Source: an uncultured Gammaproteobacteria bacterium (GTDB taxonomy: Bacteria; Pseudomonadota; Gammaproteobacteria; Xanthomonadales; Xanthomonadaceae). From it: a stretch of DNA of 64,000 bases. The notes under the pieces were generated by a model. It did not search any database, was not told the DNA's origin, and worked only from the letters and a program-made list of their open reading frames with translations. The position numbers were made by a program, and so were the translations under genes. Location of the stretch: contig CAVVFI010000007.1 in assembly GCA_963747445.1 (NCBI GenBank), positions 56,935 to 120,934 of the forward strand, read 5' to 3'. Position 1 is the stretch's first letter. Each line of letters opens with the position of its first letter. Shown here one piece after another: positions 9,286-27,051 of this stretch.

Positions 9286-9288
9286 CGA

Positions 9289-11349
9289 TCAGGGTTGCTT
9301 TGCGCCGGCAGGCGATACACCGCCCTTGCCGTCAGCGGGCTTGCCGTCAGCGGGCTCGCCCTCCGCGGGCTTGCCCTCCGCGGGCTTGGCCTCCGCGGGC
9401 TTGGCGGCATCGTCTGGGGATTGCGCGGGGTTTGCCTTGGCAATCGTCGACTCCACCGAGCCGGTCGTGATCGGGTGGTACCCCGGGCGCGCCTTGGCGA
9501 AGGTCTCCCTGGCAAACGCCAGGCCAGCGCGCGTTTTCACCAGTGCCTCGTAGATCGGCATGATCAGCTTGCGGCGCCCCACGCGCTGCATGAACTCCGC
9601 CATCGCATCGTCGGCAGCGTGGTAACCACTGCGCACCGCCAGCGGATACCAGCGCTGCGCGATCTCGCCGTTGGCCGTCCCGGTGAAGTGGTAAGCCGCG
9701 TCCAGCGCTTGCATGCGCGACAGGCTCAACTTGTCCGGCAGGCCCTCCAGGAAATGCACCCATTCCTGCGTGCCCCAGGCCGAGGTCAACGACGATGCCG
9801 GCAACTTGTCGCTGCCGTCCCACGCGATCCGCGCGGCATCGACGATGCTGAAACGCTGCGAGCGCACCTTTGGTGCCGTCGCCGGGATGCCCGGCTCCTG
9901 GATCCACTGGTCGAACTCGTCCTGGCTGACCGTGCCCGGATACTTGTCCAGCAGGTGGGCCTTGGCATAGGCGACGAATTGCGCGGTCGAGATGCTCTGG
10001 AACGCGAAGTGGTCGAAATAGCCCCGCAGGAACGCATCGAAGCGGTCGCGTCCGAAGCGTTGCTCCAGGAACTGCAGGAACCATGCCCCCTTGGTGTAGA
10101 CCGTCCCGGTGAGGTTGTCGTCGGGGTCGGGCAGCGCACCGGGCTTGATCGCCAGCGACTGCAGCGGCTTGTTGTCGCCGGTGAACTCGTCGCGCAGCTC
10201 GTCGCGGGCGATCACGCTTTCCATGTTGGCCTGTTCCTGGCCGTACAACGCCTCGATGATGCGGTTCTCGACGTAGCTGGTGAAGCCTTCGTTGAGCCAG
10301 GCGTCGCGCGAGGTCGAAAACGTCACCAGGTTGCCCGACCAGCTGTGCGCCAGTTCGTGCGCGACCAGCGAGACCAGCGACTTGTCGCCGACGATCACGG
10401 TCGGCGTGGCGAAGGTCAGGCGCGGGTTTTCCATGCCGCCGTAAGGGAACGACGGCGGCAGCACCAGGATGTCGTAACGGCCCCAGCGGTACGGGCCGTA
10501 CAGCTTCTCGGCGACCTGCATCATCTTTTCGGTGTCTTCGAACTCCTTGGCCGCCTTGTCCACCATCGCAGGCTCCGCCCAGACGCCGGCGCGATCGGAA
10601 ATCGGCTTGAACACCAGGTCGCCCGCGGCAATCGCCAGCAGGTACGACGGGATCGCCTGCGGCATCTTGAAGGTGTAATCGCCATCGCGCGGCGCATCGG
10701 GATCGTTGTCCGCGCTCATCAGCACCATGGCGTCCGGCGGCGAGGTCACGTGCGCGCTGTAGGTGAAGCGCACCTGCGTGGTGTCCTGCAGGGGAACCCA
10801 GCTGCGCGCGTGGATCTGCTGCGACTGGCTGAACATGAAGGGCTGCTGCTTGCCCTGGGTCATCGCCGGCGACAGCCATTGCAGGCCGGAAGCGTCAGGC
10901 GACGTCGCGTAGCCGACGCGCACGGTGGCATTGCGCTCGGGCACCTGGATGGTCAACTTGCTGCCCAGCAAGGCGTCCTTGTCGGCCAGCGTGTATTGGA
11001 GCGCCGACCACTGGCCATCCTTGCCCGCGCCCTCGACTTTGTCGATGGCCAGGTCGCGGGTGTCGAGCACCAGCGTGCTGGCGTTTGGCTGCAGCCATTC
11101 GAGGGTATAGGTCGCGGTGCCCGCGATCCGCCTGTCGTCGAAGTCGATCCCCAGGTCCAGCGCGATGTCGGTGATCCTGACCTTGTCCGGCTCGGCATAC
11201 GAGAATTCGTCGTGGGTCTCGGCATTGATCACGTGGGAGGCCTCCGGCTTGGTTTCAGGCAACGACGCCGGTTGCGCCGGCGCAGGCGTGCGCGAGCAGC
11301 CCGCGACCAGGGCGGCGGACAGGAAACAGATGGAAAGCAGTGCACGCAT
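9289..11349 (-). CDS. M1-family aminopeptidase (leukotriene A4 hydrolase-like), lipoprotein
   Basis: GGMEN and HELAH...E (HExxH-x18-E) motifs; LVAGC lipobox; C-terminal KPAEG repeats. Confidence 0.96.
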   Translation of the reverse strand: MRALLSICFLSAALVAGCSRTPAPAQPASLPETKPEASHVINAETHDEFSYAEPDKVRITDIALDLGIDFDDRRIAGTATYTLEWLQPNASTLVLDTRDLAIDKVEGAGKDGQWSALQYTLADKDALLGSKLTIQVPERNATVRVGYATSPDASGLQWLSPAMTQGKQQPFMFSQSQQIHARSWVPLQDTTQVRFTYSAHVTSPPDAMVLMSADNDPDAPRDGDYTFKMPQAIPSYLLAIAAGDLVFKPISDRAGVWAEPAMVDKAAKEFEDTEKMMQVAEKLYGPYRWGRYDILVLPPSFPYGGMENPRLTFATPTVIVGDKSLVSLVAHELAHSWSGNLVTFSTSRDAWLNEGFTSYVENRIIEALYGQEQANMESVIARDELRDEFTGDNKPLQSLAIKPGALPDPDDNLTGTVYTKGAWFLQFLEQRFGRDRFDAFLRGYFDHFAFQSISTAQFVAYAKAHLLDKYPGTVSQDEFDQWIQEPGIPATAPKVRSQRFSIVDAARIAWDGSDKLPASSLTSAWGTQEWVHFLEGLPDKLSLSRMQALDAAYHFTGTANGEIAQRWYPLAVRSGYHAADDAMAEFMQRVGRRKLIMPIYEALVKTRAGLAFARETFAKARPGYHPITTGSVESTIAKANPAQSPDDAAKPAEAKPAEGKPAEGEPADGKPADGKGGVSPAGAKQP

Positions 11350-11563
11350 GGCGATGGCGAATCGGCGGAGGGAATCGCGATTGTAGCGCCAGCGGCGTGA
11401 CCAAGGTCGTCGCGACTTCTGGCACTACGACATGTGCTGGTCCCGCGCCATCCTGCATGCATCGCAGGCAGGCACGACGGGGCACCCCTGTCGTTGGTCA
11501 TGGAAACCCATCGGCCCGTCCGCGCATCCCAACCAGTCATTCGACCACCTTCAGGAGCCACGC

Positions 11564-13822
11564 TTGAAATCCATCGCCCTGGCCGCCGTACTGACGGCAT
11601 GCATCCCTTTTGCCCAGGCCCATGCCGGGCAAGACGCGACGACAGGCACCGTGGATTATGTCCCGGGCGGTCGCATCCCGAAGCTGCAGGGCGGGATCAC
11701 GATCGACGGAAAGCTGGACGATAGCGCCTGGCAGGGCGCGCTGGTGCAGGAAATCGCCTACGACACCCAGCCCGGCGACAACACCGCCGCCCCGGTCAAG
11801 ACCGTCGTGCGCATCGGTTACACGGCCGATGCGTTGTACCTGGCCTACCACGCGCTGGATCCGGACCCGGCCTCGATCCGCGCGCACCTGCGCGACCGCG
11901 ATGCGATGTTCAACGACGATTGGGTCGGGGTGTTCCTGGATACCTTCAACGACCACCGTCGCGGCTACGAGCTGGCGGTGAATCCACTGGGCGTGCAGGG
12001 CGACATCATCCGCGACGAATCCAACACCGACAACCAGGAAGACGCAAGCTGGGACGGACTCTGGACCAGCGTCGGACGCATCACCGACATCGGCTACGAC
12101 GTCGAGATCCGCATCCCGTTCTCCACCCTGCGCTTCCCAGGGGGCGGTGGCGACCAGCAATGGGGCATCTCGCTGTACCGCAACTGGCCGCGCGACAAGC
12201 GCCACCAGCTGGCCAGCCACAAGGTGCCGCGCGATTCCAACTGCTTCGAATGCGAGTGGGGCAAGTACACCGGCCTGGCCGGTGCGCAACAGGGCCGAAA
12301 CCTGGAGGTGGTGCCGACGGTCACCATCGGCAAGGAACAGACGCGCGATGCAGCGGGCGAGCCGTGGCGCAGCGGCGACACGGCAATCGAACCGGGCGTG
12401 GACGTGAGTTGGGCGCCGTCGCCAAGCATGACCCTCAACGCGACCATCAATCCCGATTTCTCGCAGGTCGAAACCGACCAGCTGCAGCTGAGCTTCAACG
12501 ACAGCTTTGCGTTGTTCTACCAGGAAAAGCGGCCGTTCTTCCTCGAGGGCGCCGATTACTTCACCACCCAGTTCAACGTGCTCTACACCCGCCAGATCGC
12601 CGATCCCGACTACGGCTTGCGCGTGACCGGACGCAGCGGCGGCGGTACCTATGGCGCGATCGTTGCGCGCGATGCCACCACGCTGGTGCTGGTGCCGGGC
12701 GTGCTGGGTTCGGGCTTCGAGCAACTGGACCAGAAGGCCAACGTGGCGGTCGGCCGCTATCGCTACGACTTCAATACCCATTTAAGCGTCGGCGCGATCG
12801 GCACGTTCCGCCAGGGCGATGACTACGCCAACAACGTGGCCGGCGTCGACGCCCGCTGGCAGCAGGGATCGCACACGGCTACCGCGCAGTTCCTGCACAG
12901 CCAGTCCGAATATCCGACCGATATCGTGGACGTCTACCGCGACGAGCTCGGCGACGACCCGACGCCCTCCGGCAACGCGTGGCGCGCGGAATACGCCTTC
13001 AGCAACCGCAACTGGAACTTCGACGCCTGGCACCTGGACATCGATCCGGGTTTCCGCGCCGACCTGGGCTTCATGGGCCAGGTCGGTTACGACAAATCGC
13101 TGGTCGGCGGCGGACATACCTGGTATCGCGACGACAAGGCGTTCAATCGCGTCAACGTCTACGCCGACTTCGACATCACCCATCGCTTCGACGGGCAGCT
13201 GCTCGAGCGCGAGCTGGAGGCGCAGGCCAGCGTCCAGGGCCCCATGCAGAGCAGCCTCAACCTGCACGGCCTGACCCGGGTGCGCTTCTGGCACGGCGTC
13301 CTGTTCGACGAGCACTACGTCGACCTCAACACCAGCTACCGTCCCGGCGCCAACCTGCAACTGGGCGCCTACGTGCAGGCAGGCACGCTGATCGACCTGG
13401 CCGCGGACAAGACCGGCCGCCGCACGATGCTGGAGCTGTGGGGCAATGCCAGCGTCGGCCGAGGCGTGGCCCTGGACTGGGACCTGATCCGCCAGCGCAT
13501 GCGACGCGACGGCGGCACCGCATTCGAGGCCACGGTGCTCAACGCCGGCGGCAGCTGGCAGTTCGATCCGCGCCAGCGCCTGCGGCTGGTCCTGCAGGGC
13601 AGCGAAGTGCTGCGCGACCAGGCGTTGTATGCCGACCCCGTCGACGCCACCGCGCGCGACTGGGCGGCGCAGCTGGTGTATTCATACAAGGTCAACCCGC
13701 ACACCGCGATCTATGCCGGCGCGTCGTATGGCGCGTTCATGGACGACGACAACCCGGAGCTGTTCGGCAATACCCGCAACGTCTTCATCAAGATGAGCTA
13801 CGGATGGCAACCGCGCCGCTAA
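11564..13822 (+). CDS. DUF5916-like / CBM9-like domain outer-membrane protein
   Basis: TTG start after AGGAG, signal peptide, ITIDGKLDD CBM9-like N-terminus, NPDFSQVE and EKRPFFLEG motifs, beta-strand-rich C-terminus. Confidence 0.8.
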   Translation: MKSIALAAVLTACIPFAQAHAGQDATTGTVDYVPGGRIPKLQGGITIDGKLDDSAWQGALVQEIAYDTQPGDNTAAPVKTVVRIGYTADALYLAYHALDPDPASIRAHLRDRDAMFNDDWVGVFLDTFNDHRRGYELAVNPLGVQGDIIRDESNTDNQEDASWDGLWTSVGRITDIGYDVEIRIPFSTLRFPGGGGDQQWGISLYRNWPRDKRHQLASHKVPRDSNCFECEWGKYTGLAGAQQGRNLEVVPTVTIGKEQTRDAAGEPWRSGDTAIEPGVDVSWAPSPSMTLNATINPDFSQVETDQLQLSFNDSFALFYQEKRPFFLEGADYFTTQFNVLYTRQIADPDYGLRVTGRSGGGTYGAIVARDATTLVLVPGVLGSGFEQLDQKANVAVGRYRYDFNTHLSVGAIGTFRQGDDYANNVAGVDARWQQGSHTATAQFLHSQSEYPTDIVDVYRDELGDDPTPSGNAWRAEYAFSNRNWNFDAWHLDIDPGFRADLGFMGQVGYDKSLVGGGHTWYRDDKAFNRVNVYADFDITHRFDGQLLERELEAQASVQGPMQSSLNLHGLTRVRFWHGVLFDEHYVDLNTSYRPGANLQLGAYVQAGTLIDLAADKTGRRTMLELWGNASVGRGVALDWDLIRQRMRRDGGTAFEATVLNAGGSWQFDPRQRLRLVLQGSEVLRDQALYADPVDATARDWAAQLVYSYKVNPHTAIYAGASYGAFMDDDNPELFGNTRNVFIKMSYGWQPRR

Positions 13823-13909
13823 AAAACCACGCATGCGATAGCAATCAAGCGCGTCGCAACGCGGGAAGTTACCCGCTTGCGTAGGCTTTTCCCCAGCCGC
13901 CTGGCAGCC

Positions 13910-14007
13910 GTAGGGCGGGACTCGACCCGCCATGTCCTGCCTCCGCGGAGCAGGGAATCCAGGCGGGACAGGCGAATTGAAAGACGGCGGGTCGAGACCC
14001 GCCCTAC
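13910..14007. repeat. GTAG-type REP inverted doublet
   Basis: GTAGGGCGGGACTCGACCCGCC (13910-13931) and GGCGGGTCGAGACCCGCCCTAC (13986-14007). Confidence 0.88.
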
Positions 14008-14759
14008 ACTTTGTACCCGGTGTGGATCGCGACGATGCCTGCATTGAGGTTGCGATAGCCGCAGCGCGCAAAACCCGCCGCCTCCATCATCGCCTTGAGC
14101 TCATCCTGCGGCGGATGCTTGCGGATTGACTCGGCCAGGTATTGGTAACTATCGCCGTCGTGCGCAAACAGCTTGCCCAGCCTCGGCAGCACCTTGAACG
14201 AGTGGAAGTCGTACACCGGCCGGAACCACTGGGCCGTCACCTGCGAAAACTCCAGTACCCGTGCCTGTCCGCCGACCTTGAGTACGCGCAGCATCTCGCG
14301 CAGCGCCGCATCCTTGTCGGTGACATTGCGCAGGCCAAAGGCGATCGTGACCAGGTCGAAGCTGGCATCGGGGAACGGCAGCTTCTCGGCATTGCATTGC
14401 ACATACTCAAGCCCGCGCACATTGCCGCGGTCGGTCATGCGGTCGCGGCCGACCGTCAGCATGCCGGCATTGATGTCCCCCAGCACGACCTCGCCCGTGT
14501 CGCCGACGCGATCCTTCAGCAGTGCGGCGATGTCGCCGGTCCCGCCTGCCAGGTCGAGCACGCGGTTGCCCTTGCCGACCTGCGCGGTGGCCACGAAATA
14601 ACGCTTCCACACCCGATGGATGCCCAGCGACATCAGGTCGTTCATCAGGTCGTAACTGCCGGCCACCGACGAGAACACCTCGCCGACGAGCTTCTGCTTG
14701 TCGCCAGTGGGGACTTCGCGGTAGCCGAAGTGGGTGGTGGATTTGCCGGAGTTGTCCAT
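14004..14759 (-). CDS. ubiE: Ubiquinone/menaquinone biosynthesis C-methyltransferase
   Basis: THFGY, YDLMNDLMSLGIHRVWK and VLDLAGGTGD motifs; 251 aa. Confidence 0.98.
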   Translation of the reverse strand: MDNSGKSTTHFGYREVPTGDKQKLVGEVFSSVAGSYDLMNDLMSLGIHRVWKRYFVATAQVGKGNRVLDLAGGTGDIAALLKDRVGDTGEVVLGDINAGMLTVGRDRMTDRGNVRGLEYVQCNAEKLPFPDASFDLVTIAFGLRNVTDKDAALREMLRVLKVGGQARVLEFSQVTAQWFRPVYDFHSFKVLPRLGKLFAHDGDSYQYLAESIRKHPPQDELKAMMEAAGFARCGYRNLNAGIVAIHTGYKV

Positions 14760-15032
14760 GGCCGGATTATCGCATCGCCGCGACGCCACGGGCGGCCGGC
14801 CAGCGGCGGCGCGGCTCGCGACCGGAGCCCTGTCCCGCCCGCCGCGCGTTCATTGGCGTGGGCACGATCGATGGCAACGGTGTCCCAACGCGGCCCGGAC
14901 CGGTGCCCGGCTCGTCGACGTCCGGCACTTTGTCGAGGTAGCCGCCCGGGGCCTTGGCGAGCGTCCGGGCGTCACCCCGCCGGGCATGCGCCGGCCCCGC
15001 GGAGTGCGGGTGCCGACGCCGCGGGAGTGGAC

Positions 15033-16268
15033 TTACTGCGCCGGAACGGGGTTTTCGTGGATGAAGTTGATCACGGCACGTGCGTCGTCGGCCGCCTGGC
15101 TGAACGCGTCCACCTGCGTGCCGGTGTAGTCCGTCCCGCCGAAGATGGCGACCATGATCGGTTCGGTGACCAGCGTATAGGTGCCGTCACCGTTGCTTCT
15201 CAGGTAGGTGACGTCGCCGGTGTAGGTGGCCGCGCGGTCATAGGTGGCCGATGAGAAGTCGAAATAGGTCTTGCCATCCGCGCCCACGATCGGCTGGAGG
15301 CCGTCGACCCCGAGGATGCTGTCCATGTACACCACCATGTCCTGGTTGATCGATCCGGCCTTGTCCGACGCGGCGGCCAGGAACGACGCCGCCATCAACA
15401 GGTCGGCATTGGTCATCGTTGTGTCAGCCAGGAACGACAGCGATCCCAGGGACACACCGTCCTGGAGGTCCAGCCCCGGCAGGTAACCGTTTTCCATCAG
15501 CCTGATGTAGAGGGCGAGGTTTTCCAGCGGCGAGTCGATGGTCTTCTCCACGCCATCGATGGTGACCACGATGCGGCCCGCTTCATCCACACGGATGGCG
15601 GTGGCGGCATTGAGGGTGGCCAGCGCCTCGTCGTAGGACTTGTCGGTGACCTTGTTCGGCGAACGACCAACACTCAAACGCCCGAACTCGACTGCTTGCG
15701 CCAGGTCGGCGTAGCCATCCTCGATCGCGCCTTCCTCGTCGATCGGAATCGGGTTGCCATCGGCATCGACAGGCTGCACGTGACCGAACTCGTCCAGGAT
15801 CGGGACACCGTTGTCGTCGCGCAGGATCACGTAGAGGTCGCCGTAAAGATCGCCCTTCTTGCTGCCGGCTTCCCCGGGCTTGCCCGTGGTCTTGCCACCG
15901 CCATACTTGGGCCCGCGGCGATCGGAATCCTCCTCCTCTTCGGGGCCGACGTCCTCGCGCAGCACTTTCGACTCCACGGACTGGCTGCCGCTGTCGCCCT
16001 GGCCGCGCTTCCCGGCACCCTGGCCGGCATTGCCCTTTTTGCCCTCCTGGGCGGCCGAATCCTGGCCCCCGGAGCCGTGGCTGTCGCCGCTGGCATGGCC
16101 TGAATCGTGAGTATCCTGGGCATGGGCCGATGCGATCGGCGACAACGCCCCGGGATAGGCAGCGCCCAACGCACAGCAGACGGCCAGCGAGAGTGCGGTG
16201 GCGACCAGCCTTCCCCGGTAAGGAGTGGCGCGGCGGGTGAGTGCTGACGGTGTGGTGTTCTTGTTCAT
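15033..16268 (-). CDS. Hypothetical exported acidic protein
   Basis: AGGAG RBS, signal-like N-terminus ending AHA, Gly/His/Ser-rich linker and Asp-rich globular domain; 411 aa. Confidence 0.85.
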   Translation of the reverse strand: MNKNTTPSALTRRATPYRGRLVATALSLAVCCALGAAYPGALSPIASAHAQDTHDSGHASGDSHGSGGQDSAAQEGKKGNAGQGAGKRGQGDSGSQSVESKVLREDVGPEEEEDSDRRGPKYGGGKTTGKPGEAGSKKGDLYGDLYVILRDDNGVPILDEFGHVQPVDADGNPIPIDEEGAIEDGYADLAQAVEFGRLSVGRSPNKVTDKSYDEALATLNAATAIRVDEAGRIVVTIDGVEKTIDSPLENLALYIRLMENGYLPGLDLQDGVSLGSLSFLADTTMTNADLLMAASFLAAASDKAGSINQDMVVYMDSILGVDGLQPIVGADGKTYFDFSSATYDRAATYTGDVTYLRSNGDGTYTLVTEPIMVAIFGGTDYTGTQVDAFSQAADDARAVINFIHENPVPAQ

Positions 16269-16338
16269 GATGTGCTCCTGGAGGGTTTCATCGTGGTGGA
16301 AGCGCACGTTCGGGCTGTTTGCCGAGGGTGCGATGGGT

Positions 16339-18870
16339 TCAGAACCGGATGCCCAGCCCGATGCGGGCCAGGTACTGCTGGTTGTTGAAGCTGATGTCGT
16401 CGGGTTTCGCGTGGGTCGTGCTGAAGGCGATCGAGTCGTAGGCCGTCCGGCTGTAGTCCATCCGGAGGAACAGGTCGCTCGACAGCGGGGTTTCCAGTCC
16501 GACCCCGATCCGGGTGCCCGGGAGGGTGTCGTCACGGTCCACCCACGCGTCCGGGTTCTCGCCTTTTTCGTAGCGGACGTTGAATCGGCCGCGGACCCGG
16601 CCCGCGCGCGCATACAGCAACGCCCCGCCGCGCGTGGCATAGCCCATGCGCAGTGCGACGCCGGCGCTGCTGCGGGACTCGATCGAGAACTGGCGGCCCT
16701 CGGGCAATCGATCGTGGTGCCACGACGCCTTGCTCGAATCGGCTTCCAGTTCGACACCGGCATAGAACGGACCCCATGCCCGCCCGTAGCCGGCAAAGGC
16801 ACCGAAATCGAGTCCGCGCCCGCCGAAATCGGCCTCGAAGTCCGTCAGCGTCGGCGCATTGCCCTGGCGCATCACGGCCTGCAAGGCGCTGTGCACACGG
16901 TCGTCCCCGCCCTGTGCGCCGGCATAGAAGCCGCCCGGGCGGCGCGCATCGCCCGCCAAGGGCAGTGACGGGCCGAAGCGCCAGCCGATGCCCAACTGGA
17001 ACCGGCCCTGGCTGCCGGAGAAACGATCACTTTGGGGAGCGTCGTAGGTCACGTCGTAGCCGGCGTAAGGCGCCACCTCGTAACGGGCCCGCGCAAAGGC
17101 GTGCGCCGATACCGGCACCTCGAGGCCAAGGCCGAAGCTGTTGGCGGAGGTGCGGTCGCCATGTTCGCTGGCCAGGCCTTCATCGGTCACATAGCTGCTG
17201 TCGAAGTCCGCCCGCCGGCGCCCGATGCCCAGGGTCGCCAGCGCATGCTCCGGCAGCACCAGGCCGGCAAGCAGGGTCAGCCCGGTTTCCCGTCCCCCAC
17301 CAGTGGCGAAGATGCGGCTGTCGGGCGACTTGTCATGGCGCCAATCCGCGCGCGAACTTGTGGCGTCGAACTCGGCCGCCAGGTAGAAGCGCCCGAACGA
17401 CCGGCCATAACCGGCAAACAGCGCGCCGGTGCCGCCAGCGCCGCTGAAATCGGCGAGATAGTCTCCGTGCTCCCCGCGCGCCCCCGTCACGCGGGTGCCG
17501 AGCACGTCGTAACCCAGCGACGTCCCGACGTAGAAGCCGGACGGGCCGGTGGACGTAGCGAAAGGACCCGAAGCAGCCGCGGATGGGTCGGCGCCGTCGC
17601 TTGCCGGCAGCAGCGGACTGCCCGCGCCATCCAGGCGCAACCCGACATAGAACATGTTGCGGTCGTACTCGGCACCGGCCTCGTCGGAGCGTCGCTGCAA
17701 CAGGCGATAGTCGGCATCGACCTGCAGGCGACGGCTGAGCCGGTAGCTCAAGCCGATGCTCGGATTGGCGATGTCGTCGGTGCGGTCGATGCCGTTGAAA
17801 TCGCTCCGCGCCAGCGTGATGCCGGCCCGCGCCGACAGCCGCTCGTTGACGCGCCGGTTCACCCGCAGGGCCAGGCTGGTGTCGAGGTAGCCGGAGGCGC
17901 CGGGAATCGTCGTGTCGTAGATCGCCCGTTCCAGCGAGGCCGAGACGAGGGTGGCGGGCGTCACCTGCCAGCGCAGGGTCCCGCCCAGGGTCGGGACGCC
18001 GACATCCTCGAATACCGGGTCGTCGTAGCGCTGCGAGAGCCAGCCGGCGTAGACCTCGCCCTGCACCTTCCCCGCCCCATGGCTGGACAACCCGAGCGCC
18101 CAGGTGGCGCCGGTCGAACCCCGCTCGAACCCGTCGTCATCGATACGCCACTGGTAACGGCGTCCGTCCAAGGTGCCCTGCACGAACAAGTCCGCACGGG
18201 GAAGCAAGGCATAGCCCACCCGTACGCCGAAACCGCTCACATCGCGATTGCGATCCTGGTTGTTGATCCGGATGCCCTGGGCGTCGAGCACGTTTTCGAA
18301 GCGCAAGGCCCGGTAGGTGCCGCCCAGCCGCACCATCCACTGGGCGCCGCGATGGGCGAAGCCGACATGGGCGTTGCGCTCTTCAAAACGCGTGGGCTCG
18401 ATGCCGAAGACATCATCGGGCGACGTGCGATCCTCGTGGTCGCGACCAAAACCCAGGCCGCCGAACAGCTTCGAAGTCGCCGACAGGCCAAGGTTGCCCG
18501 AAGCGTCGATGCGGTAATCCAGGCTGTCTTCGGCATCGTGGTCGCGGTACCGCGTATCAGTGAGCGAGGCATCCACGGTCGCGTCTCCCCATGCGCCGAC
18601 CCTGCGCATGCGCAACGATGGGTTGGTCTCCAGGTACACGTCGCCCTCGGGGGCTGCCGGCGTGGCGAACACGTTGCTATCGTGACCCAGCCCGATGCCC
18701 AGCCCGGGAACGAAGATCCAACCGTCAGGAAGCGAAGCAGGCGGCGTGGGCGGCGTTGACGACGGCAATGGCCCGTTGGCCGACTGCGCGCAGGCGACGG
18801 CTGGTGCGACCAATGCCAGCGCCAGGGCAACGCAAAGCACGCGTCGAGCGAGCCTGCCGCGGACCCTCAT
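16339..18870 (-). CDS. Outer-membrane protein: BBP2-like large barrel plus two tandem OmpA/Omp25-like small barrels (start 18870 or 18918)
   Basis: Signal peptide ending ACA; three beta-signal-like ends (FYVGLRL, FQLGIGWRF, LARIGLGIRF); two GFY(V/A)G repeats; terminal Phe. Confidence 0.8.
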   Translation of the reverse strand: MRVRGRLARRVLCVALALALVAPAVACAQSANGPLPSSTPPTPPASLPDGWIFVPGLGIGLGHDSNVFATPAAPEGDVYLETNPSLRMRRVGAWGDATVDASLTDTRYRDHDAEDSLDYRIDASGNLGLSATSKLFGGLGFGRDHEDRTSPDDVFGIEPTRFEERNAHVGFAHRGAQWMVRLGGTYRALRFENVLDAQGIRINNQDRNRDVSGFGVRVGYALLPRADLFVQGTLDGRRYQWRIDDDGFERGSTGATWALGLSSHGAGKVQGEVYAGWLSQRYDDPVFEDVGVPTLGGTLRWQVTPATLVSASLERAIYDTTIPGASGYLDTSLALRVNRRVNERLSARAGITLARSDFNGIDRTDDIANPSIGLSYRLSRRLQVDADYRLLQRRSDEAGAEYDRNMFYVGLRLDGAGSPLLPASDGADPSAAASGPFATSTGPSGFYVGTSLGYDVLGTRVTGARGEHGDYLADFSGAGGTGALFAGYGRSFGRFYLAAEFDATSSRADWRHDKSPDSRIFATGGGRETGLTLLAGLVLPEHALATLGIGRRRADFDSSYVTDEGLASEHGDRTSANSFGLGLEVPVSAHAFARARYEVAPYAGYDVTYDAPQSDRFSGSQGRFQLGIGWRFGPSLPLAGDARRPGGFYAGAQGGDDRVHSALQAVMRQGNAPTLTDFEADFGGRGLDFGAFAGYGRAWGPFYAGVELEADSSKASWHHDRLPEGRQFSIESRSSAGVALRMGYATRGGALLYARAGRVRGRFNVRYEKGENPDAWVDRDDTLPGTRIGVGLETPLSSDLFLRMDYSRTAYDSIAFSTTHAKPDDISFNNQQYLARIGLGIRF

Positions 18871-19113
18871 GCTGGTGGTGCAAAACAGAAGCGTCGTGCT
18901 TGGTGGTGCCGATGGCATTGCGATCCCCCCGGGAAACAAGTCCAGTCTGGAGGTCGCCTGTGGGGGCGGCATTGATACAGGTCAAACAAGGTGCCGGGCC
19001 TTCCGGCACGACATCAGCGCTTCCAGTTGACTTGCATCAACATGCCACCGTTTCGCCGGGTACAGGCTCGATGCGCCGACAGCAGTCGGCCCCATTCCAT
19101 CGAGGTGGTCATC

Positions 19114-19593
19114 GTGAGCAACACATCCTTCCTGCTGCTGGTCTCGCTATCGTTCGCCGTGTCCCTTCCGGCGATCGCGCACTCCCCACTGGCTGCCGCG
19201 GCGGATTCGGCCAGCATTGCCCAGGACCGGGACCAGGATCGCTCGGTGGACGGGGACCGGGATAGGGACATGGACCAGGACCGTGACCAGCGCAGCGACC
19301 AGGACCGCCTGCAGGACCGGGATCGCGATGGCGTCCAGGTCTACGGGTACGATCTGATGACGCCCGCCGAACGCATCCGCTACCACGCCCAGATGCGCAG
19401 CCTGGCGACCCAGCAGGAACGCGACCGGTTCCGCAAGGAGCACCATGCATTGATGCAAGAGCGCGCCAGGCAACGCGGTGTCAAGATCCCCGACGCGCCG
19501 ATGGAGCCGATGCACCAGCACCCGCAAGCGCCCAGGAACCAGCCGCGCCTGCAGCAGCCAACCCCGCAGGAATCAAGGCGACGCCGCAATTGA
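19114..19593 (+). CDS. Hypothetical exported Gln/Asp/Arg-rich protein
   Basis: GTG after GAGGTGG; signal peptide; QDRD repeats; helical [11 protein letters not shown]...[10 protein letters not shown] segment. Confidence 0.78.
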
Positions 19594-19676
19594 GCGGATG
19601 GCTTCCGGAAATACCACCTGCGTCCGCCTTTCCATGGAGCGCGGACGCCCATCCCATTGCATGATGGCCGCCTGGA

Positions 19677-19822
19677 GGATGTACCGGCCCAGATCCCGAT
19701 TCTGCACCTGCTCGTCCAGGTGGGCGTCGACGTAGGCGCGGTCGATGGTGACGGTGTCGCCGTCGCGGTCCGGGCTTCATAGCCGAGTGTGTCCAGCAGG
19801 CGCTCGCAATGAAGGCGCCGTG
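19677..19822 (-). pseudogene. Degenerate duplicate of the hslU 3' end
   Basis: 19677-19806 aligns to 21775-21905 with about 11 mismatches and a 1-bp gap (manual count); weaker homology continues to RRLH. Confidence 0.9.
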
Positions 19823-20061
19823 GCTGGATGGCCAATCCCTTGTCCGCCTTGGGGAGACGTGGCTGCTCGCCCAGGCTCCGCGCGTACCCGCCGCAGGCCG
19901 GCAGTGCACTACCGGACACGGTTGCCGGCGAATTGCCCGGCAGGCCAGCGGATCAATTTTTTAGCGCGCCCGCGCCTCAAGCAGATCAACCGCGTGCGAA
20001 GCCGGGATCGACACGCAACTTCCCATACCGGTCATACTTGAATTGTCTCGGGGGATCATCC

Positions 20062-21750
20062 ATGACAGCCAGCCACCCATTGCGCGAGCAGCCCCTGTTG
20101 ATTGCCGACGAGGCCACGCTCACCCACTACCTGGAAGGCTATCCCCGCGATAGTTTTGCCTCCCTCCGAGGCAGCGAGGGGATCGACGAGCAAGCCTGGG
20201 CGGCACTGGACAGCGACACCACCCAGGAAACCTACGACCGGGCACGACAGCTGGGGTTACCCTTGGTGCGCCTGGGCGCGCTCGGCCCCGACCCCAAGGC
20301 CACCGCCTTGATCACGCCCCAGGTGGCACGCCAGTTCCGCGCCGTGCCACTGCGCGCCAACAACGGTGTGGTCGCGATGGCGATGGAGGATCCGGGCGCC
20401 AGCAATGTCCACGCGATGCTGGATTTCCTCAGCCGCGAGCGTGTCATCGCGATGGTCGCGACGCCGCGCGACATCCGCGAATGCATCGCCCGCTGCTACG
20501 ATCGGGTCGAAGACGGCCAAATGTTGCGGCAGCTCGGGCTTGATCCACTGGCACGCACCGTCGAAGCCTCGGAGGAGGAAGCCCGGCGCCTGGCGGCAGA
20601 AAAGCCCGTGGTCGGCCTGGTGCATGCCCTGATTACCAACGCCGCCGCACGCCGCGCATCGGACATCCATTTGCGGCCGGGTGAGGACGGCACCGATGTC
20701 CTCTACAGGATCGACGATGAAATGATCCCGGTGCGCCATCTCCTGCGCGCCCTGCATCCGGCGGTGGTGAGTCGCATCAAGGTGCTTGCCAACATGAACC
20801 TGGCCGAGCATCGCAAGCCCCAGGATGGCCGCACCACGTTCACCATGCCCGACGGCAGGAATGTCGACTTGCGCATCTCGGTCCTGCCAGCCGTGTTTGG
20901 CGAGAGCGTGGTGGTGCGCCTGCTGGACACGCTGGAGGGGCTGTGGAACCTGGACCAGCTTGGTCTTTCCGACAAGGATCGGCAGCGTATCGATGACGTG
21001 ATGTCCCGCGACCACGGCATGTTCCTGACCACGGGACCGACCGGGTGCGGCAAGTCGACGACGCTGTACGCAATGCTGCTGGAACTGCGCAAGCAGCGCA
21101 TCAACATCCTCACCATCGAGGACCCGGTCGAGTTCCACATCGCCGACCTGCAGCAGATGCAGGTCAATCGCGCGGCTGGCTTCACCTTTGCCACGGCGAT
21201 GCGCAACTTCCTGCGTCACGACCCGGACGTGATCATGGTGGGCGAAATACGTGACGAGGAGACCGCGCAGATCGCAGTGGAGAGCGCGCTTACCGGTCAC
21301 CTCATGCTCAGCACCCTGCACACCAATACCGCGGCCACCACGGTCACGCGGCTGCTCGACCTGGGCGTGGAAGCCTACCTGCTGCGCGCATCGCTGCTGG
21401 CAGTGATGTCGCAGCGGCTGGTGCGGTTGACCTGCGAACATTGCCGCCAGGTCGAAACGGCCGATCCGCACATGCGCGAGGTGCTTGGCGTCGGCGCGGA
21501 TGAAGTCTTCTACTCAGGGGCAGGCTGTCCGCTATGCGAGGGACTCGGCGTGAAACGACGACGCGCGGTCTATGAGTTGATGGTGATATCGCCGCGCTTG
21601 CGCACGCTGATCGTGCGCGACGCCGAAGCGGACAGGATCCACGAGGCAGCGCTCGAGGAAGGCATGGTGCCGCTCACCCAGGCAGCCATCACGTTGGCGC
21701 GTACCGGGGTGATTTCACTTGCCGAAGCATGGCGGGTGCGCGCGGACTGA
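20062..21750 (+). CDS. GspE/PilB-family secretion ATPase (orphan)
   Basis: ASDIH, RIKVLANMNLAEHRKPQDG, Walker A GPTGCGKST, Walker B VIMVGEIRD, two CxxC motifs. Confidence 0.95.
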   Translation: MTASHPLREQPLLIADEATLTHYLEGYPRDSFASLRGSEGIDEQAWAALDSDTTQETYDRARQLGLPLVRLGALGPDPKATALITPQVARQFRAVPLRANNGVVAMAMEDPGASNVHAMLDFLSRERVIAMVATPRDIRECIARCYDRVEDGQMLRQLGLDPLARTVEASEEEARRLAAEKPVVGLVHALITNAAARRASDIHLRPGEDGTDVLYRIDDEMIPVRHLLRALHPAVVSRIKVLANMNLAEHRKPQDGRTTFTMPDGRNVDLRISVLPAVFGESVVVRLLDTLEGLWNLDQLGLSDKDRQRIDDVMSRDHGMFLTTGPTGCGKSTTLYAMLLELRKQRINILTIEDPVEFHIADLQQMQVNRAAGFTFATAMRNFLRHDPDVIMVGEIRDEETAQIAVESALTGHLMLSTLHTNTAATTVTRLLDLGVEAYLLRASLLAVMSQRLVRLTCEHCRQVETADPHMREVLGVGADEVFYSGAGCPLCEGLGVKRRRAVYELMVISPRLRTLIVRDAEADRIHEAALEEGMVPLTQAAITLARTGVISLAEAWRVRAD

Positions 21751-21769
21751 TCGGCGTGGCCAACAGCGA

Positions 21770-23155
21770 TCAAAGGATGTAGCGGCTCAGGTCCGGGTCC
21801 TGCACCAGCTCGCCCAGGTGGGCGTCGACGTAGGCACGGTCGATGGTGACGGTGTCGCCGTCGCGGTCCGGGGCTTCATAGCTGAGCGTGTCCAGCAGGC
21901 GCTCGAGCACCGTATGCAGCCGCCGCGCGCCGATGTTCTCCTGGCGCTCGTTGACGGTGGCGGCGATGTCGGCCAGTCGTTCGATCGCGTCCTTGTCGAA
22001 GGACAGCGTGACGCCCTCGGTCTTCATCAGCTCAAGGTACTGCGTGGTCAGCGCGGCCTTGGGCTCGGTCAGGATGCGAACGAAATCGTCCTTGCTCAGC
22101 GCCGACAACTCGACCCGGATCGGGAACCGGCCCTGCATCTCCGGGATCAGGTCCGAGGGCTTGGCCAGGTGGAACGCGCCCGAGGCGATGAACAGGATGT
22201 GGTCGGTGCGGATGGTGCCGTACTTGGTGCTGACGGTGGAGCCCTCGACCAGCGGCAGCAGGTCGCGCTGCACGCCTTCGCGAGACACGTCCGCGCCCAT
22301 CCCCTCGCTGCGCTTGGCGACCTTGTCGATCTCGTCGATGAAGACGATGCCGTGCTGCTCGCAGGCCTCGATGGCGGCTTCGCGCACGTCGTCCTCGTTG
22401 ACCAGCTTGCCGGCCTCGTCCTCGGTCAGCTGCGGACGCGCAGCGGAAATCTTCATGCGCTTGCGCTGGGTCTTGTTGCCGCCGACCTGGGAAAACATCT
22501 GCCGCAGCTGCTGGCCCATCTCCTCCATGCCAGGCGGCGTCATGATGTCGACCCCGGCGTTCTGGGCCAGGTCGATTTCGATCTCGCGGTCGTCGAGTTC
22601 GCCGGCACGCAATTGCCGGCGCAGCTTGATGCGGGTGTCCGAGTCCTGCTGCGCGGACGGCTCGTTGGCGATGTCCTGCGCGCTGGGGTTGAAGCCGAAC
22701 CCGCTGCCGCCGCCGGTGCGCCTTGGCAGCAGCGCATCGAGGATGCGCTCCTCGGCGTTTTCCTCGGCCCGGGTGCGCACGTGCTGCTTGGCCTGCTCGC
22801 GATAGAGCTTGACCGCCGTGTCGGCCAGGTCGCGGATGATCTGCTCGACATCCTTGCCGACGTAGCCGACCTCGGTGAAGCGCGTGGCTTCGACCTTGAC
22901 GAAGGGCGCATTGGCCAGGGTCGCCAACCGGCGCGCGATCTCGGTCTTGCCGACGCCAGTGGGGCCGATCATCAGGATGTTCTTGGGCATGACCTCGTTG
23001 CGCAGCTCGGGCGCCAGCTGCATCCGGCGCCAGCGGTTGCGCAGCGCGATCGCGACCGCGCGCTTGGCGTCGGCCTGGCCGATGATGTGCTTGTCGAGCT
23101 CCTGCACGATTTCGCGCGGGGTCATGGAAGCGGACGTGTTTTCGAGTTTCTGCAT
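21770..23155 (-). CDS. hslU: ATP-dependent protease ATPase subunit HslU
   Basis: [33 protein letters not shown]; ends YIL. Confidence 0.99.
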
Positions 23156-23173
23156 GGAATCGTTTCTTCGAGA

Positions 23174-23244
23174 CGGGCTGTTGTATGCGGGCTGTTGTAT
23201 GCGGGATGTTGAATTCGGGATGTTGAATGCCGGGCTGTTGTAGG
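23174..23244. repeat. 14-bp tandem repeat (CGGGCTGTTGTATG / CGGGATGTTGAAT[T/G]) x5
   Basis: Read directly; last unit merges into the TGTAGG start of the adjacent REP. Confidence 0.85.
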
Positions 23245-23397
23245 AGCGGCTTCAGCCGCGAGCTCTTGATTTTGATTTTGACGTTTTGTAGGAGCGACGT
23301 AAGTCGCGATCAGTCGCTCCGCCTGCTTTGTTATCGCGACTTACGTCGCTCCTACAAGAGCCAACATCAAGCGCTCGCGGCTGAAGCCGCTCCTACA
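23239..23397. repeat. Nested four-REP cassette (BIME-like, GTAG family) between hslV and hslU
   Basis: TGTAGGAGCGGCTTCAGCCGCGA ... TGTAGGAGCGACGTAAGTCGCGA ... TCGCGACTTACGTCGCTCCTACA ... TCGCGGCTGAAGCCGCTCCTACA. Confidence 0.93.
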
Positions 23398-23411
23398 GGG
23401 CTCTGCAGCGG

Positions 23412-23963
23412 TCAAAGCTCCTCGACCACCACGTTGCGGTTGGTGTAGATGCAGACATCGCCGGCGATGTGCAAGGCTTCGGTTGCGACGGTCCTCGCAT
23501 CGAGCTGCGTATGCGCCAGCAACGCACGTGCGGCGGACAGGGCATACGGTCCACCAGAGCCGATCGCCACCAGCCCGTCCTCCGGCTCGATCACGTCTCC
23601 GGTCCCGGAGATGATCAGCGAGGTTTCCTTGTCGGCGACCGCCAGCAGGGCTTCAAGCTTCCCGAGACGGCGCTCGGTGCGCCAGTCCTTGGCCAGCTCG
23701 ACCGCGGCCCGGATCAGCTGGCCGTGCTTCTCGAGCTTGGCCTCGAACAGTTCGAACAGCGTGAACGCATCGGCGGCGGCTCCTGCAAAACCGGCCACGA
23801 CCTGGTTGTCGCGGCCAAGGCGGCGCACCTTGCAGGCGTTGGACTTCATCACCGTATTGCCCAGGGTGACCTGGCCGTCGCCGGCGACCGCGACGCGGCC
23901 GTTGCGGCGCACGGACACGATGGTGGTGGCGTGGAAGGTGTTGGGGTTCTGGCTGGGATCCAT
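23412..23963 (-). CDS. hslV: ATP-dependent protease peptidase subunit HslV
   Basis: [10 protein letters not shown] (catalytic Thr), GDGQVT and GSGG motifs. Confidence 0.99.
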
Positions 23964-23991
23964 GCGGACCTCCGTGGAAGCTGTCCTTCGG

Positions 23992-24019
23992 AGGTGGGGG
24001 CGATCCGGCGCGTCGCAAG
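23992..24019 (-). promoter_or_regulatory. Putative sigma-32 promoter of hslVU
   Basis: Minus strand CTTGCG-N14-CCCCACCT, resembling CTTGAA-N13/14-CCCCATNT; fits a heat-shock operon. Confidence 0.5.
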
Positions 24020-24034
24020 GGCGGCCGCCGCCGT

Positions 24035-24199
24035 TGCAGGAGCGGCTTCAGCCGCCAGCTATTGATCCCGGCCTTGGTTTTTTTGTAGGAGCGACGTAAG
24101 TCGCGATAGCAAAGCAGGCGGAGCTTCTGATCGCGACTTACGTCGCTCCTACAAAACCAAAGCCAAAGCGAAGAGCTCGCGGCTGAAGCCGCTCCTACA
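24035..24199. repeat. Second nested four-REP cassette, inverted relative to 23239-23397
   Basis: Same REP units; central spacer gatagcaaagcaggcggagcttctgatc is the near reverse complement of the first cassette's spacer. Confidence 0.93.
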
Positions 24200-24220
24200 A
24201 GAACAAATGCGAAAAAGCCG

Positions 24221-25099
24221 CTAAGAAGAGCTGCCTGGCTTGCGCTTGGCACGCGGATGCGCGGCGTCGTAGACCTTGGCCAGGTGCTGGAAGTCCAGGT
24301 GGGTATAGATCTGGGTCGTTGCGATGTCGGCATGTCCCAGCAACTCCTGCACGCCGCGCAGGTCGCCGGACGATTCCAGCACGTGGCTGGCAAAGCTGTG
24401 CCGCAACAGATGCGGGTGCACACGCTTGAACAGGCCTTGGCGCTGGGCGAGCTTGCGCATGCGCAGTTGCACGGCGCGCGGGGTGATCGGGCCGTTACGC
24501 CCCGGGAAAACAGGATCCTTCTCGCCAGCGCTGCCGTCCTTTCGCCATGCCTGCAGCGCATTGCGCGCATGCGACCCCACCGGCACCGTCCGCTGCTTGC
24601 CGCCCTTGCCCAACACCGTGACCAGCCCGCCGTCCAGGTCGAGGTCGCGCCAGCACAGTGCGCACAGTTCACTCAGCCGCAGGCCCGAGGAGTAAAACAG
24701 CTCCAGCAATGCGCGATCACGCAATCCAAGCGGTGCATCGGTGGGCACTTCGACAAGTGCCTTGGCCTCGTCGGGATCGAGCACTTGCGGCAGCTTTCGC
24801 GGCGCCTTGGGCGCGCGAATGCCTTCGGCAGGACTGGCCTTGATGCGACCGTGCCTGAGCAGCCAGCGATAGAAGCTTCGGCAGGCGGACAGCCGGCGTT
24901 GCAGGCTCTTGGCAGCAAGCCCGCGACGGTGCTCGGCGGCGATGAAGCCACGCAGGTCTTCGGTCTTGAGGTCGATGAGGTCGCGGCCTTGCGCCTGCGC
25001 CCAATCCGACAAGGTGGACAGGTCGCGACGATAGGCGTCCAGGGTGTGTGCCGACATGCGGCGCTCGACCTGCAGGTGGGAGAGGAAGTCGTCGATCAC
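24221..25099 (-). CDS. xerC: Tyrosine recombinase XerC
   Basis: [35 protein letters not shown] and TTQIY motifs; dapF-DUF484-xerC context. Confidence 0.97.
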
Positions 25100-25208
25100 G
25101 ACGGCTGCCCCTTGCCCGTCGTTCGCGCCCAGGTGGGCGTGCCCGGGGCATGCCGATCATCGCTCATCGTGTCCAGGTCAATGGACGCCAGGCCTGAAGT
25201 CCAGGACG

Positions 25209-25237
25209 CTGGATTCCCGCTTGCGCGGGAAGGACGG
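25209..25237. repeat. CGTC-type REP (single)
   Basis: ctggattcccgcttgcgcgggaaggacg palindrome. Confidence 0.75.
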
Positions 25238-25258
25238 GCAAAAGCAGGGGGCCGTCGA

Positions 25259-25954
25259 TCAGCCATCGAACCTTTGCAAGGCCGTCGCCAACGACTCGCC
25301 CATCATCCGCAGGAACAGCGTGCCCATGCCGGGATAGAAGCGGTTGGGTTCGCGACTGCCGATCGCGATCACGCCGCGACCAGGCATCGGCAGCAATGCG
25401 CTGGACTGCACCTCGTCGACGCGGTCCCCGTACAGCAGTGCATTCTTTTCCGGCTGCAGGCGACCACACAGCGGCTCGCCATCGGCCAGGCAGTCGCGGA
25501 ACGGGACCAGCCTGTCGTCGCCTTCGGCGATGACCTGCAACCAGTCGTCCGCGGCCATGCCGTCGATCGGTTCCAGCAGCACCACTCGCACCAGGTCGCC
25601 CTGGAAATCCTCGGCCAGTGACGCGGCCATCGCGCGCACCGTGTCCGCGGCGCTGTCCTGCTTGAGCAACGCCAGGGTCAGCTGATGGGTGCGCACGGCC
25701 AGGCGCTCGTTGTCCTGCGCGTTGCCGAACAACTCGTGCAGCCGCCGCGTCAGCTCGCGGTTCTTGTCGCGCAACACCTCCAGCTGGTAGCTGGCCAGCG
25801 AGGCGGCCGGACCGTCATCACGCGGCACCACCATGCTGATCGCCAGGTCGGGGAACTGCTGCAGGAACTTCGGGTGCCGCCGCAGGAAGGCCGCGACCTC
25901 GTGCGTACCGAGCTTTTCGCCGTGGGTATCGCTGTCGCCCAGTTTGCTGCTCAC
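25259..25954 (-). CDS. DUF484 (YigA-like) family protein
   Basis: [19 protein letters not shown] and GMGTLFL motifs; between dapF and xerC. Confidence 0.93.
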
Positions 25955-26811: not shown

Positions 26812-26814
26812 GGC

Positions 26815-27051
26815 TCAGTCGTTGCCGGCGGCGTCGCCATCGTCCGCAGGTGGCGGAAGCGCTTCGTCCGATGACACCGGCGCTGCCGGCTCGGCGACCG
26901 GTTCCACCGGCGTGGCGTCTTGCGGCGCCGCCTCCTCCGGTGTCTGGGTCTCCGGAATCTGGGATGGTTTGACCAGTGGACCCTTGTTGCCGCAGGCGGC
27001 CAGGGTGGCCAGCAGTGCGGCGGCGATCAACGTGCGCGTGATGGGATTCAT
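26815..27051 (-). CDS. Small lipoprotein, LppL/LptM (YifL) family
   Basis: LAACGNKGPL lipobox and signature; immediately upstream of dapF. Confidence 0.88.
   Translation of the reverse strand: MNPITRTLIAAALLATLAACGNKGPLVKPSQIPETQTPEEAAPQDATPVEPVAEPAAPVSSDEALPPPADDGDAAGND

Follow-up and report, generated by a model that had tools for sequence, protein, structure and literature searches.

A conserved gene pair for a multi-barrel outer-membrane protein and an acidic exported partner between ubiE and hslU of a Xanthomonadaceae genome

Between ubiE and hslU of an uncultured gammaproteobacterium of the Xanthomonadaceae (GenBank assembly GCA_963747445.1, contig CAVVFI010000007.1, positions 56,935 to 120,934 of the forward strand; this whole stretch of 64,000 nucleotides is hereafter “the window”), a gene for an outer-membrane barrel protein of 843 amino acids (16339–18870, minus strand; gene call P0121) is followed on the same strand by a gene for an acidic exported protein of 411 amino acids (15033–16268, minus strand; open reading frame [ORF] and translation, with an identical 411-aa gene call, P0001), here called the partner. 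Comparison of loci across genomes showed that barrel and partner form a conserved two-gene cassette that is independent of gene order. The initial annotation of this DNA, made from the sequence alone, had placed both genes in an accessory block together with a divergent exported protein rich in Gln, Asp and Arg and a lone GspE/PilB-type ATPase, and had proposed that the barrel and the acidic protein were either a transporter and its cargo or an anchor and its surface protein. We consider it very probable that barrel and partner cooperate physically in the outer membrane; that the 18-strand part of the barrel would provide an ATP-free route or anchor for the partner to the cell surface is a reading that we hold more tentatively.

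Recurrence of the pair across genomes

Loci from genomes comprised the best 80 by partner homology plus those of Dyella thiooxydans and Sphingorhabdus sp. M41 (n = 82); four of these are contigs that end at the partner gene, leaving 78 informative loci, and eight metagenome loci brought the total to 90. A full-length barrel homologue adjoined the partner in 68 of the 78 informative genome loci (68 of 82 overall), lying upstream on the same strand in 57, downstream on the same strand in 10 and on the opposite strand in one. The pair spanned Gammaproteobacteria, several alphaproteobacterial orders and Nitrospirota. When the test was reversed and a metagenome scan was seeded with barrel motifs, eight full-length loci with successive barrels of 18, 8 and 8 strands (18-8-8) were recovered, seven of which encoded the partner directly downstream; the contig of the eighth stops 166 nt past the barrel, so that all seven informative loci carried the pair. 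Among loci for single-barrel BBP2_2 proteins of other kinds, the partner was found in 1 of about 50. Percent identities of barrel and partner were correlated with each other (r = 0.88), a relationship that is partly trivial phylogeny. The initial annotation had named co-occurrence in other genomes as the check on its proposal, and barrel and partner do co-occur elsewhere; the idea that they are a functional pair is strengthened by their adjacency in both gene orders.

As a general caveat, related genomes share gene order, and barrel and partner could on that ground be neighbors by descent or chance with no functional link. This is extremely unlikely, given that the adjacency is kept in both orders across Gammaproteobacteria, several alphaproteobacterial orders and Nitrospirota and that the flanks of the pair are unrelated between lineages (Dyella, Sphingorhabdus, wastewater and other contigs). 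Clustering and a Pfam census of 122 immediate neighbors were used to look for a universal third gene, and none was found; the surroundings consisted of lineage-specific accessories and a few metal-efflux genes. The census returned 106 families, almost all of them once, the only recurrent ones being P1B-ATPase domains (three) and CDF cation efflux (two).

Predicted architecture and a possible route to the surface

The partner opens with a signal peptide (residues ∼1 to 51, with cleavage predicted after AHA, an AxA-type signal peptidase I site), continues with a disordered region rich in Gly, Ser, Asp, Glu, His and Lys (residues ∼52 to 140, ending in the conserved EEDSDRxGP and GDLYGDLYVILRD) and closes with a folded alpha/beta core domain of ∼270 amino acids (residues ∼140 to 411; 15036–15851, minus strand, the stretch used for the P-numbered relatives). 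Its mature form has a pI of 4.24 and no Cys. In an AlphaFold2 (AF2) model, the per-residue confidence score (pLDDT) was >90 at residues 150 to 410, which form a mixed alpha/beta domain, and <50 for most of residues 1 to 140. An alignment of 94 homologues followed the same plan, with a signal peptide, a variable tract (median of 59 residues; Gly 30%, Ser 15%, Asp plus Glu 15%, Gln 6.6%, His 6.2%, Lys 6%), the conserved motifs EEDSDRxGPxWAGG and GDLYGDLYVILRDxNGVPIL after the tract, and a well-conserved core with 25 invariant columns; core invariants include TIDSPLENL, AAxDK, YDR and DDARAVIxFxH. A shorter paralogue matching the C-terminal half of the partner (residues ∼190 to 407, 27 to 34% identity) sits between partner and barrel, or beside them, in Nitrospirota and some other loci (L013 1693–2163, L014 11455–11925, L081 9423–9887 and L094 5963–6340).

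No Pfam or NCBIfam family matched the partner, and Pfam searches with 22 homologues at E ≤ 1 gave nothing consistent. A sequence-profile search against the Protein Data Bank (PDB) found no match, and the best Foldseek hits of the model (E = 0.4 against PDB, with TM-scores of ≤0.12, and E = 0.46 against BFVD) showed no resemblance. Significant relatives numbered 986 among the candidates scored, all of them either without a name or called “hypothetical”, and no Pfam domain was found in any. Relatives occurred in 248 species (one genome per species) of Rhodanobacteraceae and other Xanthomonadales, many alphaproteobacterial orders and Nitrospirota, and a search with the core alone against 1.84 billion representative proteins returned 665 clusters (50% identity) at E ≤ 1e-3. 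In distant relatives the core was fused to SLH (P0315), RTX repeats (P0386), PKD (P0385), DUF11/CARDB (P0399), DUF4214 (P0403) or Golvesin_C (P0368), and it was tandemly repeated in P0319, P0347 and P0406. Because such companions typify surface and secreted proteins, we take the core to be an unannotated extracellular domain, one that other lineages use as such. These modules were limited to distant relatives; in the window partner itself, Pfam searches found neither SLH nor RTX, nor any other module known to serve anchoring or secretion. The fusions to SLH, RTX, PKD and DUF11/CARDB also lend support to the earlier idea of a transporter and its cargo or an anchor and its surface protein. As a sizeable family (the 665 clusters and 248 species genomes given above) with a confidently predicted fold, no Pfam model and no solved relative, the partner carries what is apparently a widespread extracellular domain missed by current annotation, one that merits definition as a domain family.

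The barrel protein is predicted to consist of a signal peptide, an 18-strand BBP2_2 barrel, a disordered linker of 30 amino acids and two 8-strand OmpA-like barrels, with a C-terminal Phe. Strands were counted with DSSP on an AF2 model (mean pLDDT of 82), three short DSSP breaks being taken as single strands, and numbered 18 at mature residues ∼50 to 414, 8 at 445 to 632 and 8 at 646 to 842. About 45 disordered residues separate the signal peptide from the first strand; the loops are short, and the model has no plug domain. Pfam matched BBP2_2 (PF10082) at 256 bits against a cut-off of 23.7, aligning ORF residues 84 to 447 with profile positions 12 to 376 of 378, and beyond this domain returned OMP_b-brl in three stretches and a weak match to OmpA_membrane; POTRA, ShlB and Bac_surface_Ag gave no match at E ≤ 0.01. 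Foldseek retrieved generic barrels alone (TonB-dependent receptors, porins and MtrB), with no specific relative. In two lineages the partner was paired with an 18-strand-only barrel (L071 6858–7931 and L096 5761–7179), and therefore the two 8-strand barrels appear to be dispensable and the 18-strand domain would be the part that matters for pairing.

We prefer a surface-display reading of the cassette, mainly because the partner core is judged extracellular from its fusions. The Sec system would deliver the partner to the periplasm, where its disordered acidic N-terminal segment would occupy or thread the plug-less 18-strand pore; the folded domain would then be displayed outside, the two 8-strand barrels would act as extra, dispensable membrane anchors, and no ATPase would take part in export. 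The partner would need a route across the outer membrane because it carries only a Sec signal peptide, with no lipobox, in a diderm, and the barrel is proposed as that route because it is the only conserved neighbor. If the barrel exports or anchors the partner, it would add a new route to the few that diderm bacteria have for bringing proteins to their surface and would put a compact two-gene surface-display system on offer. The broader claim, that the cassette constitutes a previously unrecognized ATP-independent pathway of export and display at the outer membrane, a new “two-partner” class in which a plug-less 18-strand BBP2-type barrel, in most cases with two 8-strand barrels added, translocates or holds a surface protein of new extracellular fold in at least ∼250 species of Proteobacteria and Nitrospirota, is possible but doubtful.

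Several observations weigh against surface display by way of the barrel. In 10 loci (Rhodobacterales and Roseibium), no barrel was found within 10 kb of the partner, which can thus occur on its own at a locus, although the barrel may be elsewhere in the genome. The alignment behind the barrel model is shallow (18 sequences), and closure of the barrel is predicted from the secondary-structure string alone. The barrel has neither POTRA nor another periplasmic domain by which it would recognize the partner, and which end would face outward is a guess. RNA evidence was sought, and the sequence was found solely in soil and sediment metagenome DNA runs. Finally, the metal-related neighbors and His/Asp-rich accessories of some loci hint at a different primary role. 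The 10 loci without a barrel are L034, L038, L043, L045, L051, L058, L068, L075, L076 and L078, several of which have longer Gly-rich N-terminal tracts in the partner.

That different role would be cation or metal handling in the envelope, with the 18-strand barrel as a channel and the acidic partner and the His/Asp-rich or DR-repeat accessories binding or buffering Cu, Zn or Ca at the outer membrane or in the periplasm, alongside inner-membrane efflux pumps. The His, Asp plus Glu and Gly contents of the disordered region among the 94 homologues (6.2, 15 and 30%) speak for it, as do extreme His/Asp-rich small proteins downstream in Rhodobacterales (e.g., HGDDHGDDHGDEHTDDH in L067). The module abuts MerR and a YHS/HMBD P1B ATPase in Dyella and its relatives (Rhodanobacteraceae; L001 3906–6877; L009, L011 and L012), and in Paracoccus, an unrelated lineage, it lies beside DUF411 and a YHS/HMBD ATPase (L080 12289–15347). 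CDF cation-efflux genes are immediate neighbors in two more loci, FeoAB and Ferric_reduct lie near single loci, and the sole recurrent families in the census above are those of P1B ATPases and CDF efflux. However, metal genes flank only ∼5 to 8 of the 90 loci, three of them from one related lineage, and the window copy has no metal-gene neighbor. The tract of the window partner is modest in His (3 in 61 residues), the conserved part of the protein is the folded domain (0.8% His) rather than the His-bearing tract, and no known metal-binding domain was detected with Pfam or NCBIfam. Metal handling, the main rival explanation of the cassette, is unlikely in our estimation; it is compatible with a surface location and could coexist with surface display of the partner.

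Export or anchoring of an exopolysaccharide or other non-protein polymer would also account for an 18-strand barrel, which might then resemble EpsL-type or Wzi/AlgE-type barrels, with the partner as an extracellular enzyme or lectin acting on the polymer. The N-terminal barrel is weakly similar to EpsL (TIGR03014, E = 4e-14) and to TIGR03016, many of the invariant residues of the partner core are Asp, Arg, Lys, Tyr, His or Asn, which would suit the site of an enzyme or lectin, and one relative (L147) has a glycosyltransferase next door. Against this, the EpsL score of 52.3 bits is far from the 275-bit cut-off, glycosyltransferase, Wza/Wzc, exosortase or PEP-CTERM genes do not recur among the neighbors, and the single-barrel BBP2_2 loci, which are likely of EpsL type, are without the partner. 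Polymer export is accordingly given a low probability, below that of metal handling.

Accessory genes vary with lineage. In the window, the gene divergent from the barrel (19114–19593, plus strand) encodes an exported protein of 159 amino acids with a signal peptide, ∼45 amino acids of D-R/D-Q repeats and one copy of a conserved helical motif. The alignment of 17 family members from module loci showed a signal peptide, D-R/D-Q repeats and one or two copies of a ∼50-residue motif, YGxxLMTxxERxxxRxxMRxAxTxxERxRIRxEHxxxMQxRARExGV. Members lay within a few kilobases of the pair in 16 to 17 of the 82 genome loci (Gammaproteobacteria and Alphaproteobacteria) and in 5 of the 8 metagenome loci. In Xanthomonadales they are divergent from the barrel, and in Alphaproteobacteria they follow downstream of the partner. 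As it is found in about a quarter of loci, we regard this DR/Q-rich protein as optional rather than core; by its distribution it appears to be a lineage-specific accessory of the pair. The initial annotation had cast it as a periplasmic partner: a real family accompanies the pair, but not as an obligatory member. No Pfam or NCBIfam family matched it, a PDB profile search led to RD-repeat low-complexity proteins only, and the CpxP/Spy/ZraP models (LTXXQ, Metal_resist) gave no Pfam match to the window protein at E ≤ 1. The homologue of L071 had an insignificant NCBIfam match to CpxP (E = 0.12), and “LMTxxER” presumably echoes LTXXQ. Possible roles of the protein are those of a periplasmic chaperone or of a cation buffer.

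Other lineages have other optional accessories. A lipoprotein of the CC0125/CC1285 family (NF047637) is encoded directly downstream of the partner in 13 to 14 loci of Sphingomonadales and Caulobacterales (L002 11326–11919, L041 12912–13505 and 12 further loci), and very His/Asp-rich small exported proteins (e.g., HGDDHGDDHGDEHTDDHTDDEH) occur in ∼13 mainly Rhodobacterales loci. In Rhodobacterales and some other Alphaproteobacteria, their genes come immediately after that of the partner (L067 4088–4558, L064 10900–11397, L080 10926–11489 and L049 7614–8060). These small proteins and the disordered region of the partner share a “SLEDRVL”-like motif. In Sphingorhabdus, a divergent Ser-Asp-repeat protein holds the accessory position.

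The neighboring ATPase, the hslU remnant and the window

The fourth gene of the block as initially annotated (20062–21750, plus strand) encodes a GspE/PilB-like ATPase of 562 amino acids with MshEN/T2SSE_N and T2SSE domains in Pfam, which scored below the NCBIfam equivalog cut-offs (GspE, 468 versus 630; PilB, 458 versus 676). Its orthologues, 560 to 562 amino acids long, annotated as “GspE/PulE family” and 70 to 83% identical, were found in Cognatiluteimonas/Luteimonas, Lysobacter, Aerolutibacter, Arenimonas and Dokdonella, and they usually lie beside ubiE, the M1 peptidase gene or hslU (L083 9739–11230, L084 10001–11689 and L086 8001–9683). A 1.3-Mb metagenome-assembled contig, L083, which is the closest relative found, has the order M1 peptidase, DUF5916, ubiE, ATPase, hslU, hslV, xerC, DUF484 and dapF, with the module absent. 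The order in Cognatiluteimonas is ubiE, two small genes, ATPase and hslU; in Arenimonas aestuarii the ATPase sits between ubiE and the M1 peptidase gene, with hslU a few genes away, and in Dokdonella it is located elsewhere. The L083 copy is 5′-truncated and split into ORFs of 83 and 409 amino acids (a pseudogene or an assembly error).

Proximity in this window alone would suggest that the four genes make up one export machine in which the ATPase drives the acidic protein through the barrel. Yet no module locus carried the ATPase (0 of 82 genome and 0 of 8 metagenome loci), its orthologues of 70 to 83% identity lie beside ubiE/hslU without the module, and a cytoplasmic ATPase of this kind requires a GspF/PilC inner-membrane platform; neither this platform nor (pseudo)pilins nor a secretin was found within 8236–27000. 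The probability of such a machine is vanishingly small. Since none of the 90 module loci carries the ATPase and relatives without the module keep it near ubiE/hslU, we place it outside the module; it is an unrelated resident gene of this neighborhood and belongs to an orphan conserved subfamily in Lysobacteraceae. The earlier view that flanking core genes explain none of the four genes, and that the ATPase is one of the block, is therefore given up, and an annotation trap is corrected, a neighboring “secretion ATPase” that stands outside the barrel-partner system.

To the left of the ATPase lies an hslU 3′-end remnant (19676–19806, minus strand; direct repeat families D2 and D5) comprising the last ∼43 codons with a 1-nt deletion. 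It matches 21774–21905, the 3′ end of the intact hslU (21770–23155, minus strand), at 120 of 131 positions with one 1-nt gap, the copies being 2098 bp apart. The remnant is 91.6% identical to the window hslU, 82.4% to that of L083 and 86.3% to that of L084 (Cognatiluteimonas weifangensis), and pairwise identities among the intact hslU genes of the window, L083 and L084 are 87 to 91% over this stretch. A recent intragenomic duplication of hslU was not upheld, as 91.6% is no higher than the identity of hslU between genera. In blastn, window 13998–14778 corresponded to L083 8936–9719 and window 20285–27000 to L083 9767–16521; the stretch absent from L083 (14779–20284, from blastn collinearity and junction sequences) takes in all three module genes together with the hslU remnant and the first ∼74 ATPase codons. 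Because those codons are included, the ATPase of L083 is 5′-truncated, and because L083 has suffered a deletion here, it does not represent the pre-insertion state.

The initial annotation had taken the duplicated hslU end to show that at least part of the block was inserted. That the part with the ATPase was inserted is rejected on synteny, the ATPase lying beside ubiE/hslU in relatives that lack the module. Two direct copies of the hslU 3′ end do bracket the ATPase exactly, a geometry such as is left by elements that integrate at gene 3′ ends, and the repeats could be att-like ends of a small island that brought the ATPase in. However, in L083 and L084 the ATPase adjoins hslU without a second hslU copy, the gene is conserved family-wide, the copies differ by 8.4%, as much as hslU between genera (88.6 to 90.9% identical in this stretch), and between the repeats there is a single conserved resident gene and no integrase, so an island at this site is very unlikely. 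The remnant records an old rearrangement where the module meets the ATPase gene, at the right-hand boundary of the module. As the two copies differ as much as hslU does between genera, the remnant may stem from an early duplication within this genome, or it may have been brought in from a related genome along with the module.

The gene order in this part of the window is M1 aminopeptidase, CBM9/DUF5916 protein, ubiE (14004–14789, minus strand), the 411-aa ORF, the barrel, the divergent ORF, the ATPase, hslU, hslV, xerC (24221–25099, the housekeeping recombinase of the conserved hslVU-xerC-dapF row), DUF484 and dapF. Much of the original description agrees with the sequence: an acidic exported protein with a Sec-type signal peptide, a barrel directly upstream of it on the same strand, a divergent exported ORF, an ATPase in whose vicinity platform, pilin and secretin genes are lacking, and a duplicated hslU end. 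Three gene starts were revised on the basis of gene calls in the public collection and of the sequence itself. The barrel gene begins at 18870 (843 aa) rather than with the ORF (16339–18972, 877 aa), the ATPase at 20062 (562 aa) rather than with the ORF 19828–21750, and the DR/Q-rich gene most likely at a GTG at 19114 behind a GAGGTGG Shine-Dalgarno sequence (159 aa), the ORF itself covering 18991–19593. Barrel stop and partner start are separated by a spacer of 70 nt (16269–16338, minus strand) with GGAG 8 nt ahead of the ATG. A terminator scan found no terminator-like hairpin in this spacer, which makes co-transcription of barrel and partner plausible and, to judge from this arrangement, likely. 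The intergenic stretch from which the barrel and DR-repeat genes diverge (18871–19113) is the presumed promoter region; a promoter scan returned 0 sites there, with no sigma-70 consensus match. Promoter and terminator scans as a whole were at background level.

The GC content of the genome is 65%, that of the block 0.64 to 0.71 and that of most flanking bins 0.63 to 0.68; an origin of the block as foreign DNA was considered on composition and not retained, as no GC contrast between block and flanks was seen. The flanks of the window are collinear with Lysobacteraceae contigs, with ∼87% DNA identity to L083 and ∼79 to 86% to L084. Where the DUF5916 gene and ubiE converge, their ends are separated by a 22-nt inverted repeat (13910–14007; 95% complementary, 54 nt apart), which is probably a terminator shared by both. 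Seven palindromic units resembling repetitive extragenic palindromes (REPs), TGTAGGAGCG-N5-AG-N-CGCGA, occur at 23239–23397 and 24084–24199 (chance expectation, 0.01 copies) as nested inverted repeats flanking hslV on both sides. We take them to resemble the GTAG-type REPs of Stenotrophomonas and Xanthomonads; L083 has several related ∼165-nt REP-like elements.

Comparison with known systems

Two-partner secretion (type Vb) likewise pairs the gene of an outer-membrane barrel with that of a Sec-exported cargo in a two-gene cassette, and its export is ATP-free, as is proposed here. In that system TpsB, a 16-strand barrel of the Omp85 family, carries POTRA domains, and TpsA combines a TPS domain with a beta-helix. 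The window barrel, in contrast, is of the BBP2_2 type without a periplasmic domain (no POTRA or Omp85/ShlB was found), and the TPS (haemagglutination activity) domain was found neither in the partner with Pfam/NCBIfam nor in 22 homologues at E ≤ 1. The cassette, which we read as working like two-partner secretion or like the lumen-threaded complexes described next, fails every tested membership feature of those families, and by the family and structure searches described above the partner appears to belong to no described family.

Proteins threaded through barrel lumens are known from RcsF (in OmpA/OmpC/OmpF) and from MtrA/MtrC (in MtrB). The likeness would lie in a partner polypeptide that spans the outer membrane inside a plug-less barrel, which for the window pair is a hypothesis; RcsF is a lipoprotein and MtrA a decahaem cytochrome, with no relation to the partner in sequence or fold, and MtrCAB (6r2q) was a generic Foldseek match of the barrel only. 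The Slam (type XI) system shares a dedicated barrel gene beside a surface-protein gene, but the window barrel has no DUF560 or TPR in Pfam and the partner has neither a lipobox nor a conserved Cys. EpsL-type barrels of PEP-CTERM exopolysaccharide loci share BBP2_2 (PF10082) with the N-terminal barrel and differ in the TIGR03014 score already given and in their setting, as exopolysaccharide or exosortase genes are neither nearby nor among the recurrent neighbors of the pair. The ATPase next to the module has the T2SSE core and MshEN/T2SSE_N of GspE/PilB/MshE ATPases; it falls below the equivalog cut-offs of that group and is an orphan without platform, pilins or secretin.

The nearest likeness in architecture is with the 18-8-8 multibarrel family predicted computationally by Solan, Pereira, Lupas, Kolodny and Ben-Tal (PNAS 2021; PMC8346858), whose 48 proteins come from 14 orders of Alpha-, Beta- and Gammaproteobacteria. 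The window barrel matches that family in predicted architecture, and its homologues match it in taxonomic spread, the comparison being by these two features. A literature search on PF10082, BBP2 and multibarrel returned that study and TCDB-style listings and no functional study, and the main text of Solan et al. treats architecture only, naming no function or partner gene for 18-8-8. To that description the present analysis adds a conserved partner and accessory genes, the strictly conserved partner offering a first testable functional handle on the family.

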